Shown here: positions 3,527 to 47,810 of the stretch, piece by piece
How the letters are laid out: every line of letters begins with the position of its first letter
Position numbering within the stretch: position 1 is the stretch's first letter
Source: Pseudomonadales bacterium
GTDB lineage: Bacteria > Pseudomonadota > Gammaproteobacteria > Pseudomonadales > DC-out160
Direction: 5' to 3'
DNA length: 51,351 bases
Assembly: GCA_016765265.1 (NCBI GenBank)
Contig: JAESQG010000001.1
Coordinates: 1 to 51,351 of the forward strand
Notes under the pieces: model-generated
Databases searched by the model: none
What the model was told of the DNA's origin: nothing
What the model saw: only the letters and a program-made list of their open reading frames with translations
Program-made: the position numbers and the translations under genes

Positions 3527-3943
3527 ATGCACATGGGCATACCAAATCATTACGCTTTTTCGTCGGCAGGCACCAACCTGTCCACTTTCTATAGGCTATC
3601 TAACCGTGGAATCCCCTCTGAAAAAGCGGGCGACCAGATCGGGCGACTGTTTGCCACCTCGTTCGCGGACGGCGCAGCGGGCACCGCAACTCTTGTGCTT
3701 GCCGACAAGCGTGGTACGATCCGATACCTGCAACTCGATGCAACCATCACCCCTACAGCCGATCGAAGCGATGCAGCAGGCACCGCAGGGGCATACCTCT
3801 GCACGGTCGATGTGAGCGCAACCGGCAAAGACAAGTTTGATCTCATGGGTGCCAACGCTGAACTCGACTGGTTTATCGGCGTGACCGACATGGGCGGGCT
3901 TACAAGCCTCGATCTGTACATCGACTACTCACCCGCGCTATGA
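3527..3943 (+). CDS. Hypothetical protein translationally coupled to the terminase (positional small-terminase candidate only)
   Basis: GGAGA precedes the ATGs at 3527 and 3533. The stop overlaps the terminase ATG (ATGA at 3940-3943). The sequence is Ala/Gly/Thr-rich with no TerS motif recognised. Confidence 0.55.
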   Translation: MHMGIPNHYAFSSAGTNLSTFYRLSNRGIPSEKAGDQIGRLFATSFADGAAGTATLVLADKRGTIRYLQLDATITPTADRSDAAGTAGAYLCTVDVSATGKDKFDLMGANAELDWFIGVTDMGGLTSLDLYIDYSPAL

Positions 3944-6543
3944 CCCAAGGCCGCAAGTCCAAGCCGTTTATCGCCTACCCGCCCGATGGGGGGGATGAAT
4001 ATCGTGGTGCAAGCCTTAAGGATTTCTGTGATTCCCAAGGGCTTGTCTACGCTTCGTGCTCGGCGTGCTGTGCTGGACGACAAAAAAACCACAAAGGATG
4101 GAGATTCCAATGGCTCGAAAACAGTGGCCCAAAGGCTCTCCACAAGCCCAGTGGATCAACGCCAACCGTGCAGGCCCCGCCCGAAACGACCGACGCGCTC
4201 GGGTTTCTCGACGAGCCCTTGCCCACCGATTCAGCCTCAAGCGATACAAACGGAGATGGCACTGTTAGCACCAAGGACAGGATCCGAAAGGCATTCAAGA
4301 AACTCTCCGAGATGTGTATGTACTACTTGGATAACCCGGACGAGACACCCGCAAGGTGGAACCCCGATGTGGTTCTCCGTGTACTCAAGGGCGAGGCTGA
4401 GGCCAACGGCATTGACTGGTCGAATATCGCCGATGAACGCACACCACTCGAAAAAGCCGCTGACAGCTACGATGCCATGCTTCTCGATCCTAGCGCAATC
4501 TACGAGAATGTCGATATAACACTCGATGCCATGATCTTTGGGTGCGAGGAATCAACCCGGCGAGGAATGGAACAGTTCGAGCGGTACAACAAGATGAAGG
4601 CCAAGGATCTTGTGCGTGCTGGAACGGTGCCCGAAGGTGAAGATCCTGAGGAACCGCCCGGCCCAAAAACAATAGCGGAGGCGGGGAAACAGTGGATTAG
4701 CCGCCTCCGCGCAATCAAGGACATACGAGACTCAATCACAGATCCCCCGACCCCCGGACTCAGCCGAAAAGAACGCATCGTCTACGAAGCAACCCGCCTC
4801 TTGCGGTTCATGCTCTATGTTTCCCGATCCGACATTGGAGATAAACAGTTTCGGCTACGGGGCGACATATACATTATCGGTGACCCGCATGTAGAGATGT
4901 CAATGTCACTTTGGCTTTCAAGGGAGGGGTACGCCAGAAGCGAGTACGGGCTCGTCGGACCTGGCGATCTCATCGGCCCCGACGGTGCCAAGTTCGAGTT
5001 CGAGGGTATCAAATACGAAGGCGTGATGCTTTTGTACCCGCCCCGTATAGGCAAATCAAATGTTATTGCAATGGATATGGCACTACTTATCAATGACTAT
5101 CCAAGATTCCAAATGGGGTATGTTCATCGTGCAGAAAAAGAAACCTCAAAAACAATCAGCAAAACGGCAGCGTTGTTTGACATAAAATCATCCGCAGGAA
5201 AAAGAAATCACAGTCTTTACCCGTACAGGCTTGACAAGAATGACAATAATACGACCACGATTCGCGTCTGGAATAAGGAAAAAACGGCAAATCCCAATGT
5301 TATTGGCGTGGGCGTGACATCTCGGGGACAGGGCAACAATCTCAATCAAATGTATGTTGACGATGTGACTCACAGGGAAGATCAAACGCAGGCCGCAACG
5401 CGAGAAAATATCAAAAAACTCATATCGTCTACATGGCTTACCCGATTCCAAGGAAGCGAAGGTTTCACTGTATTTTCAGGATACCCGTGGCACCATGAGG
5501 ATGTTCTCTGGTCTTATCTGAAAAAAGCAAGAATCGCCAAGAAAACACTAGGGAGAGAAGGCGTACCACTATGGGTATCAATGAGTCCTGTCGGCGGACC
5601 ATCAACAAATCCAAAGTTCAAGTCAATCTGGCCGGAGGTGTACGACGCGAAATGGAATAGAAGAAAATACAAACTTTTATCAGACGATTCAGCGTGGAAC
5701 GCCAACTACATGCTCGACCCGATCAGCGACGAGAACCGCATCGTCCGTCAGGTCCGGCTATACGATATCGAGCATGAATCCGCCCGCAAGTTCATTGAGA
5801 ACGGCGTTGAGCGGTATGTCTCATGCGATCCAACGGCCAAGGGCGACGGAACCGGCGACAAAGTAGGCTGGGTACAGGCCATGCTCGGGCAGGAACGCAT
5901 CGAACGGCAAGAGGACGGTCTACGGCGAATCAAATACGAGGACCAGATCCGAATCACGATCCAAGAAGAGTTCCCTGCTACCCAAATGGATCTCTCCAAC
6001 CGAATCGCCCAACTTGCCAGGGGAGAAGCGATTGACGAGGTATTCATGGAGGTTGTCACCGGCCTCGGATCGGCAACCATCGAGATGCTGGAAGAAATGC
6101 ACGGAATCCATAGCGTGACCGAGTGTGGTGTTGGGCACAAGAACAAAGAGCAGCGATTGAGAGCGGTCGCACAGATGCTCGAAAACTCCAACCCCATGCT
6201 CCCCGCCGTGGTCCTGTTTCCCGCACGCCGGGTCAACGACGAGAACGGGAACCCGACCGATCAACTCGAACCGCTCGACGAGATCAAACCACTCATCAAC
6301 TATGTCATCAACTTCAAGGTGGCAAGCGGATACCACTCACTCGACGCGCTCACCCAAATGCTCAACAAGTGCCGGTCGCGGTTGGCTATCGCGGGCGGGC
6401 AGGTTTCTAGAGAAGCACGAATGGCCGAGGAAAATAAAGGACGCATGAAAAAGCATATTGAGCGTACAATGCGTAAGAACAGCGACGAAACATTGGGCAA
6501 CCGGCGTTCAATGGCATCGTATTACAACACCGCCGGGGTATAA
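3940..6543 (+). CDS. terL: Terminase large subunit with a long N-terminal extension
   Basis: Walker A-like LLYPPRIGKS at aa 365-373, Walker B-like NQMYVDDVTH, and a nuclease-region VSCDPTAKGDGTGDKVGW. 867 aa. The first ~60 aa show a NUMOD1-like pattern (F-x-S...G-R-x-K-x-H-K-G-W-R-F). Confidence 0.85.
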   Translation: MTQGRKSKPFIAYPPDGGDEYRGASLKDFCDSQGLVYASCSACCAGRQKNHKGWRFQWLENSGPKALHKPSGSTPTVQAPPETTDALGFLDEPLPTDSASSDTNGDGTVSTKDRIRKAFKKLSEMCMYYLDNPDETPARWNPDVVLRVLKGEAEANGIDWSNIADERTPLEKAADSYDAMLLDPSAIYENVDITLDAMIFGCEESTRRGMEQFERYNKMKAKDLVRAGTVPEGEDPEEPPGPKTIAEAGKQWISRLRAIKDIRDSITDPPTPGLSRKERIVYEATRLLRFMLYVSRSDIGDKQFRLRGDIYIIGDPHVEMSMSLWLSREGYARSEYGLVGPGDLIGPDGAKFEFEGIKYEGVMLLYPPRIGKSNVIAMDMALLINDYPRFQMGYVHRAEKETSKTISKTAALFDIKSSAGKRNHSLYPYRLDKNDNNTTTIRVWNKEKTANPNVIGVGVTSRGQGNNLNQMYVDDVTHREDQTQAATRENIKKLISSTWLTRFQGSEGFTVFSGYPWHHEDVLWSYLKKARIAKKTLGREGVPLWVSMSPVGGPSTNPKFKSIWPEVYDAKWNRRKYKLLSDDSAWNANYMLDPISDENRIVRQVRLYDIEHESARKFIENGVERYVSCDPTAKGDGTGDKVGWVQAMLGQERIERQEDGLRRIKYEDQIRITIQEEFPATQMDLSNRIAQLARGEAIDEVFMEVVTGLGSATIEMLEEMHGIHSVTECGVGHKNKEQRLRAVAQMLENSNPMLPAVVLFPARRVNDENGNPTDQLEPLDEIKPLINYVINFKVASGYHSLDALTQMLNKCRSRLAIAGGQVSREARMAEENKGRMKKHIERTMRKNSDETLGNRRSMASYYNTAGV

Positions 6544-33499: not shown

Positions 33500-33686
33500 C
33501 AGTGTCCCCTTCATAAGCGATCCAAGATCGACAGTTTTCACACGCAAACGAGACTTCTTTTTCAGGGTACCCGTTTTCAATAAGCCACTCGCTAGTAGGC
33601 GTATTACATTCCTTTATGCGGGGGAAGCCATATCTCCACCCTGACGGTGGATCCACCCAAGTTCCGATTACTTTTCGGTTAGTCAT
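33492..33686 (-). CDS. Small hypothetical protein
   Basis: 64 aa. The start overlaps the HisRS-like stop (ATGACTAA). Confidence 0.5.
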   Translation of the reverse strand: MTNRKVIGTWVDPPSGWRYGFPRIKECNTPTSEWLIENGYPEKEVSFACENCRSWIAYEGDTDD

Positions 33687-34341
33687 CTTTGGTTCCTTCG
33701 CACTCCGCAGATCGCTTGTGCGCGAGCATCACGCGCTCGACACCGAACGCGAAGCCCATGCCGTTCTTGTATCGACCACCTCCGACGATCTGTTTCTGAG
33801 CACCGAGCAGGTCGCAAGTGATCTCGAAGCCGCGAGCGTCTTTGTAGTACGCCGAGCCTCGATTCACATTCAGATTCAACTCAAAGTCGAACCGATCGAG
33901 GAAAGCACTGAGCATCTGAATCGCAAGAAGGGAGATTTCGTACTCGACCTCACCATCACACGATGTTGGATTCAACCACTCCACACCGAACTGCGTGAAC
34001 TCGCGGTAGCGGCCCTCTTGCGGTTTGTCGTACCGCCAGCACCGCTCGGCGTAGTAGACCAGCGTGTCCGCTGGGAACGCATCGGCGATCGCTGAGATGG
34101 TGTTGGTGCATTCCGGACGCAGACACAGCGGGCGGCCTTTGCGGTCGGCGAACTCGTACATGCGCAAATCGGGTGCAAGTTTTTCGGTGTAGAACGGGGC
34201 GGAGTCCAGCGAGGGGAGCCGGATGGGTTGGCAGCCAAAGTTGGCGGCAATGTCCTCGCTCGATCGGATGATGCGTTGCATGAGGGCAGCGTCGTCGCCG
34301 GTTCGGATGTGTGTGCCCTTGACGGGCTTGTAGTCAGTCAT
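33679..34341 (-). CDS. Truncated histidyl-tRNA synthetase/HisZ-like class II catalytic core (no anticodon-binding domain)
   Basis: MYEFADRKGRPLCLRPECT; YYAERCWRYDKPQEGRYREFTQFG (motif 2); AYYKDARGFE; GGGRYKNG...GFAFGVERV (HisB/motif 3). Only 220 aa. Confidence 0.75.
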   Translation of the reverse strand: MTDYKPVKGTHIRTGDDAALMQRIIRSSEDIAANFGCQPIRLPSLDSAPFYTEKLAPDLRMYEFADRKGRPLCLRPECTNTISAIADAFPADTLVYYAERCWRYDKPQEGRYREFTQFGVEWLNPTSCDGEVEYEISLLAIQMLSAFLDRFDFELNLNVNRGSAYYKDARGFEITCDLLGAQKQIVGGGRYKNGMGFAFGVERVMLAHKRSAECEGTKDD

Positions 34342-45385: not shown

Positions 45386-45680
45386 GCCCCCCAATCGCCT
45401 TGTATCGACGCATCGCACGATCGGCATCGAAGAAACACATATGCGGCATAACGATGACCGCCTTATCGTTCTCCTTGCGAGCCCGAATCGTGCGTGTTTG
45501 CACGGATACAACCGTGGCGACGAACATATGGGGGATGATCCCCGAGGCCGTGGTGCCGGTCGAGTCCACCACCGTCACCGACATGCTGGGTGCGATAGGG
45601 AGGCCGTCGCCGCTCAAAGGGAGTTTCGATAGTGCCTCGGCGTTGTGCCCCTCAACCTTCTGTTTTTGCCCACTCATCAA
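45372..45680 (-). CDS. Hypothetical protein
   Basis: 102-aa ORF in the coupled array. Confidence 0.45.
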   Translation of the reverse strand: MMSGQKQKVEGHNAEALSKLPLSGDGLPIAPSMSVTVVDSTGTTASGIIPHMFVATVVSVQTRTIRARKENDKAVIVMPHMCFFDADRAMRRYKAIGGHDEG

Positions 45681-46014
45681 GATCCCCTTTCTCTGTCACC
45701 CAAGTATCGTGAATCACATCAGCGTCGATGCGATCCAGAAATGATATTGCCAACTTCGCCGCGTCGCGTGGTCCGATAGAACCCAAAGGCAGCCTTGTAT
45801 CGAACAACCACTCATGGAAACGAACGAAGTCTGCCTTGGAAATAAAACGCTCCAAGCGATCCATGTCTCGCCATTGCTTCTTACGCACACGGACAAACAC
45901 GCCAATCGTGTACCGATCCGCCGTCCGGCAAAACGCACGATAATCCTTCGCCACCTCGCGGAACCCGCGATCAAGCACCGTCGAAGTGTCGCCAATCAGA
46001 TCGTTCTCAATCAT
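45652..46014 (-). CDS. Hypothetical protein
   Basis: 120 aa. The start region GGTGAAGGATGATT is the same as at the TyrRS start and overlaps the TyrRS stop. Confidence 0.5.
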   Translation of the reverse strand: MIENDLIGDTSTVLDRGFREVAKDYRAFCRTADRYTIGVFVRVRKKQWRDMDRLERFISKADFVRFHEWLFDTRLPLGSIGPRDAAKLAISFLDRIDADVIHDTWVTEKGDLDEWAKTEG

Positions 46015-47143
46015 CCTTCACCATAACCCTTTCACCCACAACAACAGACACACAGTTCCTCTTACCCCTTTGTAATACACCATTTTTCATGATAATCTCA
46101 TGTATAGAGGAAACGGTATTCCCGTCAATCTTCACGCCGCGACCAGTAATGAGCCTTCTCGCATCCGAACGAGACTGGGCCATTCCACACAAAACAAGAG
46201 CATCAACAACGGTAGATCCGAGAGGCACATCCGTTTTACCATGAGGGATGGCAACTTTCTGCTTGCACACCAAGTCAAACCTCTTCATTGAATCTTTCGC
46301 GGCTTGCCTGCCATGAAGCATCTCAACGACCGCAAGTGCCAGTGCTTGTTTTTTTACAACCTCTAGCCCTGGCGGAGAAGAACACTGGAACAAAAGAGAA
46401 AACCACTCATCCATCAGGCCGTCTGGAATGCTCATTGTTTTTCCAAAAGCGTCGTCGGGCGTGCTGTTCATTGAAATATGGTTTCCAAGCGACTTGCTCA
46501 TCTTGTGGCTTCCGTCTGTTCCAGTAAGTATCGGAAACAGCATAATCGCCTGCTTTTTCATCCCAAGACGACCCATCAAATCCCTTGCAAGTGTACAGTT
46601 TGCCAACTGGTCATTGCCCCCAATCTCAAGGTCGCACCCAAGGCTGATGGAATCCCACGCCTGAAGGACAGGGCACACCATCTCAAGAATGGATATTGAC
46701 CCCCCGGAAGCATGTCTTTTCGAGAAATGATCCCTGCCAAGCATTGAACGAATAGACACACTGCCAAGAAGCTCAAAAAGATCATCCATTGGCGGTCTTA
46801 TGGCCGAGTTCTTTACAAAACCCCACTCCCCCCCATCGCCCATGAATCGACATATCTGGGCCATGATATCAGCCGCATTTCTCGATGTTTCACTAAACGA
46901 AAGCAATGGCCTCGATGTGTCTCGCCCCGACGGATCGCCAATCTGTCCGGTTATGTCACCAATGACAACAGTACCCTTGCAACCACGACGAACCAAAGAA
47001 CGAAATGCTGAAAACGGGACAAGGTGCCCAATGTGCAAATCGCGCCCCGTCGCATCAATGCCGATCTTTACATGCGACCCCAACGGAATGCCATTCGCAA
47101 GGCCGATCGTTTGCGAAGCCGTCTTTTCAAGATCCGTAATCAT
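46007..47143 (-). CDS. tyrS: Tyrosyl-tRNA synthetase (type 2, with a C-terminal S4-like domain)
   Basis: GIDATGRDLHIGHLVP...VIGDITGQIGDPSGRD (HIGH region typical of TyrRS), LQAWD, GGNDQ, HKMSKSLGN (KMSKS), and a C-terminal SRSDARRLITGRGVKIDGNTV (S4-like). Confidence 0.9.
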   Translation of the reverse strand: MITDLEKTASQTIGLANGIPLGSHVKIGIDATGRDLHIGHLVPFSAFRSLVRRGCKGTVVIGDITGQIGDPSGRDTSRPLLSFSETSRNAADIMAQICRFMGDGGEWGFVKNSAIRPPMDDLFELLGSVSIRSMLGRDHFSKRHASGGSISILEMVCPVLQAWDSISLGCDLEIGGNDQLANCTLARDLMGRLGMKKQAIMLFPILTGTDGSHKMSKSLGNHISMNSTPDDAFGKTMSIPDGLMDEWFSLLFQCSSPPGLEVVKKQALALAVVEMLHGRQAAKDSMKRFDLVCKQKVAIPHGKTDVPLGSTVVDALVLCGMAQSRSDARRLITGRGVKIDGNTVSSIHEIIMKNGVLQRGKRNCVSVVVGERVMVKDD

Positions 47144-47192
47144 CCTTCACCCCTTTCGCTACACACTAGCACCCATGCCACAACTTGTCCAC

Positions 47193-47552
47193 TTACTTGA
47201 CGACCTTCTTGCACACAAACTCAATCGAGCCCCGCCCGCGACCATCCTTGGAGAACGCTTGAACACAAACCGAGTACTCGAAGAAGATCGTTCGGTGTCC
47301 AACGCCCCAACTGTTGAGCAGATAAATCGCACGAACCACGCTCAATCCCACCTGCATCTCGGCCAAACAGCAGAAGCGCACGCGGCCACCGTCGGCCAAC
47401 AAGACCGCGATCACCCGCTCCATCTGTTCCTGTCGTTGGCTACTCATCATGCACACAGAATACTCTTGAATAAGAAAGAAGTCAAGTAAGGATGCAACAA
47501 CACCCCCGCCTGCAACGAACGAGGGTGTTGAGTTTTCCAGCCATTCACGCAT
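47193..47552 (-). CDS. Hypothetical protein (start uncertain: 47552 or 47450)
   Basis: This is the 3' part of the 217-aa track ORF; the 5' part of that ORF overlaps the two tRNA genes and was discarded. Confidence 0.35.
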   Translation of the reverse strand: MREWLENSTPSFVAGGGVVASLLDFFLIQEYSVCMMSSQRQEQMERVIAVLLADGGRVRFCCLAEMQVGLSVVRAIYLLNSWGVGHRTIFFEYSVCVQAFSKDGRGRGSIEFVCKKVVK

Positions 47553-47646: not shown

Positions 47647-47725
47647 TGCCCCTGTCGGGGATCGAACCCGAGATCGCCCGAATCTCTTTGCAAGACCGGG
47701 AATGTTTCCATTACACCATCGGGGC
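47647..47725 (-). tRNA. tRNA-like gene, 79 nt, non-canonical anticodon arm (anticodon possibly GCA, or CAA in another fold)
   Basis: Sense: GCCCCGAUGGUGUAAUGGAAACAUUCCCGGUCUUGCAAAGAGAUUCGGGCGAUCUCGGGUUCGAUCCCCGACAGGGGCA. The T arm is clear (UCGGG-UUCGAUC-CCCGA), as are the D arm and an acceptor stem with 5 good pairs. The anticodon region is 7 nt too long. Confidence 0.55.
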
Positions 47726-47737
47726 TACCGTCGTAAA

Positions 47738-47810
47738 TAGCGGATATCGGACTCGAACCGATGACCTTCGGGTTATGAGCCCGGCATTCTACCAACTCAA
47801 CTAATCCGCA
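47738..47810 (-). tRNA. tRNA-Met(CAU), initiator-like
   Basis: Sense: UGCGGAUUAGUUGAGUUGGUAGAAUGCCGGGCUCAUAACCCGAAGGUCAUCGGUUCGAGUCCGAUAUCCGCUA. It forms a cloverleaf. The anticodon arm GGGCUCAUAACCC has three G:C pairs, as in bacterial tRNA-fMet. There is a U1-U72 mismatch and no encoded CCA. Confidence 0.85.

Follow-up and report, generated by a model that had tools for sequence, protein, structure and literature searches.

A phage-only lineage of tyrosyl-tRNA synthetase with an apparently remodelled tyrosine pocket on a 51-kb phage contig

Introduction

Aminoacyl-tRNA synthetases encoded by phages have been seen chiefly in jumbo and 'huge' phages. A precedent for a functional viral tyrosyl-tRNA synthetase (TyrRS) exists in the mimivirus enzyme which, in work attributed to Abergel et al. 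in 2007, was reportedly found to be a full-length, virus-encoded protein active on tRNA-Tyr. For the bacterial type of the enzyme, a search of the literature found no biochemical study of a phage TyrRS and, to our knowledge, none has been characterised biochemically. Here we describe a TyrRS gene carried by a contig of 51,351 nucleotides (JAESQG010000001.1, positions 1 to 51,351 of the forward strand; hereafter the window, meaning this whole stretch) from an assembly assigned to a Pseudomonadales bacterium (GCA_016765265.1). The window is a phage contig, the TyrRS belongs to a lineage that we find only in phages and its tyrosine pocket, to judge from alignments, has been remodelled.

The closest relatives of this enzyme with solved structures are of the TyrZ/Thermus type. 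In this type a lysine (Lys41 in the Thermus thermophilus (Tth) enzyme) stands in for Tyr34 and partners a universal aspartate at the phenol hydroxyl of the substrate, the substrate α-amino group has three ligands (Asp78, Tyr169 and Gln173 in the numbering of B. stearothermophilus (Bst) TyrRS), and Tth Asp259 reads G34 of tRNA-Tyr in a base-specific manner (PMC1934993).

The TyrRS gene and its product

The gene lies on the minus strand as an uninterrupted frame of 378 codons. Its principal features are:

46007..47143, minus strand: TyrRS gene, 378 amino acids (aa), TyrZ/Thermus type, phage 'C-clade'; stop codon included.
47146..47158, minus strand: Shine-Dalgarno-like sequence AAAGGGGTGAAGG, just 5' of the ATG at 47143, read from the sequence.
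47024..47035, minus strand: HIGH codons (His37-Ile-Gly-His40), the class I signature; His37, Gly39 and His40 are invariant in the clade.
46490..46504, minus strand: KMSKS codons (residues 214–218); invariant in the clade.
46421..46423, minus strand: codon of Asp241, by alignment the equivalent of the G34 reader Tth Asp259; invariant in 268 homologues.

The ATG at 47143 is favoured as the start over a shorter, 358-aa call (P0002) because an N-terminal 'ASQxI' stretch is kept in relatives. The open reading frame (ORF) matches Pfam PF00579 (tRNA-synt_1b) at 2.8e-47, with 161.9 bits against a cut-off of 21.1, and also the Pfam S4 and SYY_C-terminal domains. It scores 230.1 bits against the NCBIfam model TIGR00234 (tyrS), for which the curated cut-off is 113.8, and matches PHROG family phrog_9270, 'tyrosyl-tRNA synthetase', at 1.2e-54. 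Five motifs can be placed along the protein: HIGH (37–40), GDPSG (69–73), LQAWD (160–164), GGNDQ (175–179) and KMSKS (214–218). An AlphaFold2 model built from 13 clade sequences (mean predicted local distance difference test score 89.5, predicted template modelling score 0.80) finds its best PDB matches in full-length T. thermophilus TyrRS:tRNA-Tyr (9sdf, 9sfq and 1h3e), with template modelling (TM) scores of 0.80–0.85. In the model the Rossmann, α-helical and S4-like C-terminal domains are all present, and the S4-like domain is modelled with confidence. An earlier note, made from the letters of the window, had recognised a TyrRS with HIGH, LQAWD, GGNDQ, KMSKS and an S4-like C-terminal domain; motifs, profiles and model agree on this identification.

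Residues were compared with those of Bst TyrRS, with 15 of 15 checked landmark residues of the reference sequence falling at the right numbers. The following Bst residues, shown with their phage counterparts, are kept:

Bst Thr40: Thr32.
Bst His45 and His48: His37 and His40.
Bst Asp78: Asp70.
Bst Arg86: Arg78.
Bst Asn123: Asn112.
Bst Gln173: Gln161.
Bst Asp176: Asp164.
Bst Asp194 and Gln195: Asp178 and Gln179.
Bst Lys230 and Lys233: Lys214 and Lys217.

Within the clade HIGH, KMSKS, Thr32, Asp70, Arg78, Asn112, Gln161, Asp164, Asp178, Gln179 and Asp241 are invariant, and five of these residues (Asp70, Arg78, Asp164, Gln179 and Asp241) show no variation across 268 homologues. The pair that recognises the phenol hydroxyl is present as Asp164 (268 of 268 homologues) and Lys26 (lysine in 265 of 268); with Lys26 in place of Tyr34, the phage enzyme is by sequence of the 'TyrZ/Thermus' subtype. 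Clade members are 40–51% identical yet keep their functional residues, which argues for long-term selection. By these comparisons, 46007..47143 encodes a genuine, selectively maintained TyrRS on a phage contig.

A phage-only lineage

Protein homologues were sought among 5.8 billion proteins, and related contigs were inspected over about ±10 kb per locus. The nearest homologues form a tight clade (P0003–P0013, about 12 metagenomic sequences) at 40–51% identity, beyond which come the ordinary cellular TyrRS, at no more than 39%. Every clade member that can be placed sits on a phage-like contig:

L004–L006 (P0007): 44-kb contigs with portal and DNA polymerase A genes; the L004 record is IMG/VR uncultivated viral genome (UViG) L097.
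L007 (P0011): 46-kb contig.
L008 (P0003): 74-kb contig (467 kb in another assembly) with at least 14 tRNAs, two of them tRNA-Tyr; RNA ligase directly 3' of TyrRS; a polynucleotide kinase (PNK)-like kinase/phosphatase and a mini histidyl-tRNA synthetase (mini-HisRS, described below).
L009 (P0008): 22 tRNAs.
L011 (P0005): 15 tRNAs including tRNA-Tyr; mini-HisRS.
L012 (P0006): RNA ligase.
L013 (P0012): thymidylate synthase and ribonucleotide reductase.

The tRNA-Tyr(GUA) genes found near TyrRS in some of these relatives (L008 and L011) fit tyrosine specificity of the clade. RNA ligase genes (PF09414) lie directly or closely 3' of the clade TyrRS in L008 and L012 (ligase and PNK-like kinase/phosphatase of L008, 11129–11848 and 14177–15133; L012, 12547–13347); these ligases and the L008 PNK-like gene resemble a tRNA-repair module like T4 Rnl1/Pnk.

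Maximum-likelihood trees recover the clade as monophyletic at a support of 99; the supports are all Shimodaira–Hasegawa approximate likelihood ratio test (SH-aLRT) values, obtained in quick searches on trees that contain several long branches. The trees were rooted on TyrS-type sequences, namely six of the weakest viral matches, which as a group are 24–28% identical and are without the E..xP..Q..D motif pattern of the TyrZ type. So rooted, the clade falls outside a single clade of 44 cellular TyrZ-type sequences drawn from many phyla. A scan of genome contigs gave best cellular matches of 31–39% identity that are scattered over Solirubrobacterales, Saccharibacteria, Chloroflexota and others. 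The earlier note had looked to phylogeny for a donor lineage and, through it, a clue to the host; the clade lies outside all sampled cellular TyrRS, to which it is 33–39% identical, and a phage-only clade as deep as this therefore supplies neither. On this phylogeny the TyrRS gene has long been evolving in phages and is not a recent capture. The window phage was found to share nothing with the clade loci beyond TyrRS, the mini-HisRS and one weak ORF match to L012.

A remodelled tyrosine pocket

The residues of the pocket were compared between the clade and the 44 cellular TyrZ-type sequences. The differences, by Bst position, are:

46673..46675, minus strand: Cys157 codon TGC (Bst Tyr169); Tyr in 44 of 44 cellular sequences, replaced by Cys in 11 of 12 sequences compared from the clade.
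46799..46801, minus strand: Ile115 codon (Bst Trp126); Trp in 44 of 44 cellular TyrZ-type sequences, Ile, Leu, Phe or Met in the clade.
46655..46657, minus strand: Trp163 codon (Bst Tyr175), flanked by the retained Gln161 and Asp164.
Bst Tyr175: Tyr in 89% of cellular sequences, Trp in the clade.
Bst His63: His in 100% of cellular sequences, Cys55 in the clade.
Bst Ser153 (aligned column): Asp in cellular sequences, His139 in the clade.
Bst Ser193 (aligned column): Thr in cellular sequences, Asn in the clade.
Bst Gly197 (aligned column): Phe in cellular sequences, Ala or Ser in the clade.

Two of the three α-amino ligands are thus kept in the phage TyrRS (Asp70 and Gln161), the third, Tyr169, being Cys157. 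As read from the alignment this is a real departure, yet not one that excludes the protein from the TyrRS family. The clade-specific residues comprise three cysteines, Cys55, Cys157 and Cys183 (the last invariant in the clade and Leu in most homologues), together with His139. Across eight loci each of the three cysteines uses both Cys codons, and the residues are therefore held by selection rather than by recent common descent. Two nested clade members, P0013 and P0122, carry Tyr at position 169, and the Tyr169Cys change is therefore not absolutely required. Amongst the 268 homologues 31 are without Tyr169, 25 of them also without Trp126, and a further five are without Trp126 alone; these counts reflect few evolutionary events and describe a pattern, not a statistic. 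Thirteen sequences with Trp at position 175 retain both Trp126 and Tyr169.

The earlier note had held that disrupted catalytic residues would mark the protein as a pseudo-enzyme. A tyrosine that is invariant in 44 cellular sequences is indeed replaced, but the change is conserved clade-wide and does not look like decay; by this comparison the tyrosine pocket of the clade is remodelled, not decayed. The description of the enzyme as full-length and intact stands for the ORF, the fold and the motifs, which are complete, but has to be qualified for the Tyr169 ligand (Cys157), for Trp126 (Ile115) and for the N-terminus, which is short. A Cys3His metal site made up of Cys55, Cys157, Cys183 and His139 was considered and is not claimed, as the topology of the fold should place Cys55 far from the pocket.

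The motif ELLVPICQGWDS marks a second clade of phage TyrRS (P0018, P0019, P0034 and others; proteins of 357–373 aa), which is likewise found in phage-like contexts, viral contigs of 42–46 kb among them. Its loci are:

L094, 8001–9083; IMG/VR loci L098–L101, L104–L107, L110 and L130.

Like the window clade, this second clade has lost Tyr169, has mostly lost Trp126 and has Trp at 175; it differs in having Val at 169, in retaining His63 and in being 36–38% identical. The two group together weakly (support 86) outside cellular TyrZ. One member of the second clade sits beside a CCA-adding enzyme, a tRNA-ligase CPD domain and ClpP, others are on IMG/VR contigs of 42–530 kb, and no mini-HisRS was found near them. 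Eighteen sequences of the 268-sequence alignment have Phe at the second His of HIGH, and we suspect that these are the second phage clade.

A mini-HisRS partner

The window encodes a second synthetase some distance from TyrRS:

33679..34341, minus strand: mini-HisRS core, 220 aa (PF13393, 7.2e-17).

Homologues of this protein, at 44–46% identity, are found no more than 8 kb from the clade TyrRS in L008 (17732–18325) and L011 (2202–2786). Within about ±10 kb per locus, a mini-HisRS is thus seen in three of the eight clade phages (the window included) against none of 55 other viral TyrRS loci, the latter being 54 other IMG/VR TyrRS loci plus L094. A 142-aa 'tRNA-synt_2b (weak)' protein of L009 was examined as a further relative and discarded, there being no detectable relation. 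This distribution suggests that TyrRS and mini-HisRS may move and function together. The tRNAs concerned, tRNA-Tyr and tRNA-His, both have G34-U-N anticodons. One of them, tRNA-Tyr, is a target of anti-phage nucleases such as Retron-Eco7 PtuAB (PMC11555353, PMC12673091).

The phage contig and its bin

Contig C405, which makes up the whole of the window, belongs to a bin of 573 contigs and 5.08 Mb that is 87% complete. Profile searches identify genes for a large terminase, portal, helicase, ParB-like protein, ERF, YqaJ, SSB, DNA methylase and RusA. The large terminase has zero tblastn matches in 50,697 INPHARED phage records, and the phage is therefore without a close cultured relative. This terminase (3940–6543, plus strand, 867 aa) has an HNH-endonuclease-like N-terminus (phrog_2081, phrog_20162). 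The GC content of the window is 53.7% against 43.9 ± 1.7% in the other contigs of the bin, a difference of more than 5 standard deviations, and the window prefers TAC and CAC where the bin prefers TAT and CAT. Because GC content and codon preference both differ, the bin organism is probably not the host of the phage. TyrRS is the only match to TIGR00234 above the cut-off in the bin, which has a tRNA-Tyr(GUA) gene on another contig; the tyrS gene of the bin organism is probably simply missing from the bin. The second-best TIGR00234 match in the bin, at 19 bits on contig C77, has an in-frame TAG.

Both ends of the contig (1–129 and 51259–51351, plus strand) lie inside a GGxACx repeat, which encodes a Gly-Tyr-Gly-Asp/Thr microprotein that is in phase across the contig ends and in which all Tyr codons are TAC. 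The phage genome is probably circular, shared repeat ends being what a circular or permuted genome cut within a repeat would give; alternatively, the assembly was broken or collapsed there. The earlier note had speculated on a link between TyrRS and this Tyr-rich microprotein. The repeat ORF is a single small protein and the phage proteome, with 2.3% Tyr and 1.8% His, is enriched in neither, so that the link is not supported, and nor is a demand for Tyr or His as the rationale for the two synthetases.

Operon neighbours and tRNAs

Four further features lie on either side of the TyrRS gene:

45652..46014, minus strand: downstream ORF, 120 aa, no Pfam match; its ATG overlaps the TyrRS stop by 8 nucleotides (nt).
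47193..47450, minus strand: upstream ORF, 85 aa, between the tRNA genes and TyrRS.
47647..47725, minus strand: 79-nt tRNA-like gene, 32.3 bits (Rfam); G1-C72, A73.
47738..47810, minus strand: tRNA(CAU), 59.5 bits; three consecutive G:C anticodon-stem pairs, unpaired U1-U72 in the Rfam alignment.

TyrRS occupies an early position in a leftward operon, and the overlap of its stop with the start of the next ORF suggests translational coupling with the downstream 120-aa protein, much as the earlier note had proposed. A scan for promoters and terminators around TyrRS gave results at chance level. By its stem pairs and acceptor end the tRNA(CAU), the ends of which ARAGORN shifts by one base, looks like an initiator-type tRNA. 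The 79-nt tRNA-like gene has normal D and T arms and an anticodon arm that is about 7 nt too long, with a loop of UUGCAAA or UGCAAAG; ARAGORN calls it only as an 'intron-containing' tRNA-Ala.

A tRNA-Tyr was sought across the 51-kb window with ARAGORN and Rfam, and none was found; as the earlier note had said, neither of the two tRNA-type genes, the only ones present, has a GUA anticodon or a long variable arm. The Rfam scan of the window returned no other family (such as a group I intron) at the gathering score. A viral synthetase/tRNA pair calls for a GUA tRNA in the same genome, and this genome has only the tRNA(CAU) and the 79-nt tRNA-like gene. TyrRS, if active, must therefore act on the tRNA-Tyr of the host. 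The same tRNAs had also been looked for beside TyrRS in related phages; blastn with the tRNA(CAU) and with the tRNA-like gene gave no match to any of the related loci.

Proposed function

The reading that we prefer, with a probability of roughly 0.6, is that of an active phage TyrRS, expressed early, which loads tyrosine onto the tRNA-Tyr of the host; that the enzyme is active, that it uses tyrosine, that its acceptor is host tRNA-Tyr and that it is expressed early are all things that we infer. TyrRS would be transcribed early from the leftward operon, and the enzyme would activate tyrosine with ATP and then move it to host tRNA-Tyr, recognised via G34 and the acceptor end. The supply of Tyr-tRNA-Tyr would thereby become independent of the host enzyme. 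Together, TyrRS, the mini-HisRS and the initiator-type tRNA could make up a small phage translation kit, and the TyrRS itself belongs to an old clade that passes between phages with no relation to one another, where it is often accompanied by tRNA arrays, tRNA-repair genes and mini-HisRS.

Several observations weigh against this reading. Tyr169 and Trp126, each present in 44 of 44 sampled cellular TyrZ enzymes, are both missing. The N-terminus is about 15–25 residues shorter than that of cellular TyrRS, which is true of the whole clade. The proteome is not Tyr-rich, leaving the benefit to the phage unexplained. The mutant studies of Fersht on B. stearothermophilus TyrRS are said to have put the cost of Tyr169Phe at several kcal/mol of tyrosine binding; the loss of Tyr169 should therefore matter unless Trp163 or some other change compensates, and an uncompensated loss could mean a much lower affinity for tyrosine or a different substrate.

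A rival reading is an enzyme that is active but functionally shifted, in which the rebuilt pocket (Tyr169Cys, Trp126Ile/Leu and Tyr175Trp, with the clade-specific Cys55, Cys183 and His139) would confer insensitivity to a TyrRS-directed inhibitor or toxin, whether its maker is the host, a competitor or the phage itself, or would accept a different substrate, for instance an analogue of tyrosine or a compound modified at its α-amino group. We regard this as unlikely, although the substitutions do fall within the amino-acid pocket or beside it, are kept throughout the clade and are under selection, and the second phage clade, whether in an event of its own or in a shared one, is also without both residues (Tyr169 to Val; Trp126 in most members). 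The mini-HisRS, which accompanies the window clade only (3 of 8 against 0 of 55 loci), would then be the second half of a replacement set. Against such a shift, the phenol-hydroxyl readers Lys26 and Asp164 and the α-amino ligands Asp70 and Gln161 are kept, and tyrosine is therefore the substrate that demands least; next to TyrRS we identified no gene for an inhibitor, no toxin and no defence system; and position 175 varies in ordinary TyrRS, with Trp also found in the 13 sequences that keep Trp126 and Tyr169. A little less likely is the idea of ancient phage 'replacement' synthetases, the rebuilt-pocket TyrRS and the mini-HisRS, that are blind to a weapon directed at translation or that use a non-standard substrate. 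Candidate weapons include an aminoacyl-tRNA synthetase inhibitor, a toxin that modifies such synthetases and a shut-off factor of host or phage; were this true, the phage could decode Tyr and His codons whilst the host enzymes are disabled.

Roles without aminoacylation appear very unlikely. The protein might sequester tRNA-Tyr or shield it from anticodon nucleases, might serve as an RNA chaperone in the manner of CYT-18, or might act on the 79-nt RNA, and several observations lean this way: the targeting of tRNA-Tyr by the retron nuclease noted above, the tRNA-repair genes (RNA ligase, PNK) that flank clade members in L008 and L012, the loss of one α-amino ligand and the odd tRNA-like gene, with G1-C72 and A73, 500 nt upstream of TyrRS. 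The clade-wide invariance of HIGH, KMSKS, Asp70, Gln161, Asp164, Asp178 and Gln179 is, however, hard to explain without adenylate chemistry; the tRNA-like RNA, with neither GUA nor a long variable arm, occurs in no related locus; and Rfam matched no further RNA family, a group I intron for instance, in the window. To the notion that the bin organism itself owns the gene as its tyrS, the contig being chromosomal or a prophage, we give next to no credence. It draws on TyrRS being the sole TIGR00234 match above cut-off in the bin and on the tRNA-Tyr(GUA) gene on another bin contig, but has to contend with the gap in GC content and the opposite Tyr and His codon preferences, with a contig that is wall-to-wall phage genes and has both ends in one repeat, as for a broken circular genome, and with nearest TyrRS relatives that are all on phage-like contigs.

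An early-expressed enzyme charging host tRNA-Tyr remains the preferred reading. The locus is of note on three counts. A 51-kb phage encodes both a TyrRS and a mini-HisRS, together with an initiator-type tRNA; its TyrRS lineage is phage-only and old enough to have no identifiable cellular donor; and in two phage lineages other residues have taken two places in the pocket that never vary among the 44 cellular TyrZ-type enzymes sampled. A naturally diverged pocket in a TyrRS of bacterial type could interest those working on genetic-code expansion.

Comparison with known systems

Jumbo phages with TyrRS include Cronobacter GAP32, Pectobacterium CBB, Erwinia Eneladusvirus and Yersinia fHe-Yen9. Like the window TyrRS theirs is phage-encoded and belongs to phrog_9270, often in tRNA-rich genomes, but it is only 24–28% identical, and the genomes are of ~350–380 kb as against 51 kb with a single bona fide tRNA. 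The earlier note had called synthetase genes rare at this genome size. This holds for cultured phages, the clearly annotated TyrRS in INPHARED all being from jumbo phages of ~350 kb, but not for viral contigs, several of 42–46 kb in IMG/VR and of 44–46 kb in Logan carrying TyrRS; a TyrRS in viral genomes of ~45 kb is thus not unique to the window. A scan of viral contigs with the single TyrRS protein as the query found none, whereas an alignment query gave matches. One match in a small cultured phage was looked at closely, the TyrRS in the record of Pseudomonas phage Ostro (48.8 kb, OR683408.1; L096 41276–45880), and this was rejected as a phage gene: it is flanked by OprD porin, bicyclomycin-resistance and HpaR host genes, and the right end of the record looks like host chromosome, either a prophage flank or transduced DNA. 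Many other small INPHARED 'phage' records that match TyrRS are unannotated, and we suspect that these are host contigs.

CYT-18, the Neurospora mitochondrial TyrRS that acts as a group I intron splicing factor (PDB 1Y42, 2RKJ), is a structural match to the model (TM ~0.56–0.60) and shows how a bacterial-type TyrRS fold can take on a second, RNA-chaperone role. In CYT-18, an N-terminal extension and insertions bind the intron; the N-terminus of the phage TyrRS is instead shortened. The mimivirus TyrRS is of archaeal/eukaryal type, comes from a giant virus of eukaryotes and has no specific relation to the window TyrRS.

The closest likeness is to TyrRS of the T. thermophilus/TyrZ type, B. subtilis TyrZ included, with which the phage enzyme shares the three-domain layout and the lysine replacing Tyr34. 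The top PDB sequence matches are the enzymes of T. thermophilus (1H3E, 9SDF; 2.6e-50), H. pylori (6BYQ; 5.5e-50) and A. baumannii (6BQY; 2.6e-46), and identity to solved TyrZ-type structures, by structural alignment, is 29–31%. Shared with this type are HIGH, KMSKS, Asp78, Gln173, Asp176, Gln195 and the G34-reading Asp259. The phage TyrRS differs by Tyr169 to Cys, Trp126 to Ile, Tyr175 to Trp and His63 to Cys, by the shorter N-terminus and by being phage-encoded; in addition Tth Asp423, which reads ψ35, aligns to Arg362 of the phage enzyme, Arg being nearly invariant among the aligned relatives. Phage TyrRS as such are known already; this one belongs to a phage-only lineage with a conserved departure at two residues of the pocket, and it is found in a mid-sized phage with a link to a mini-HisRS.

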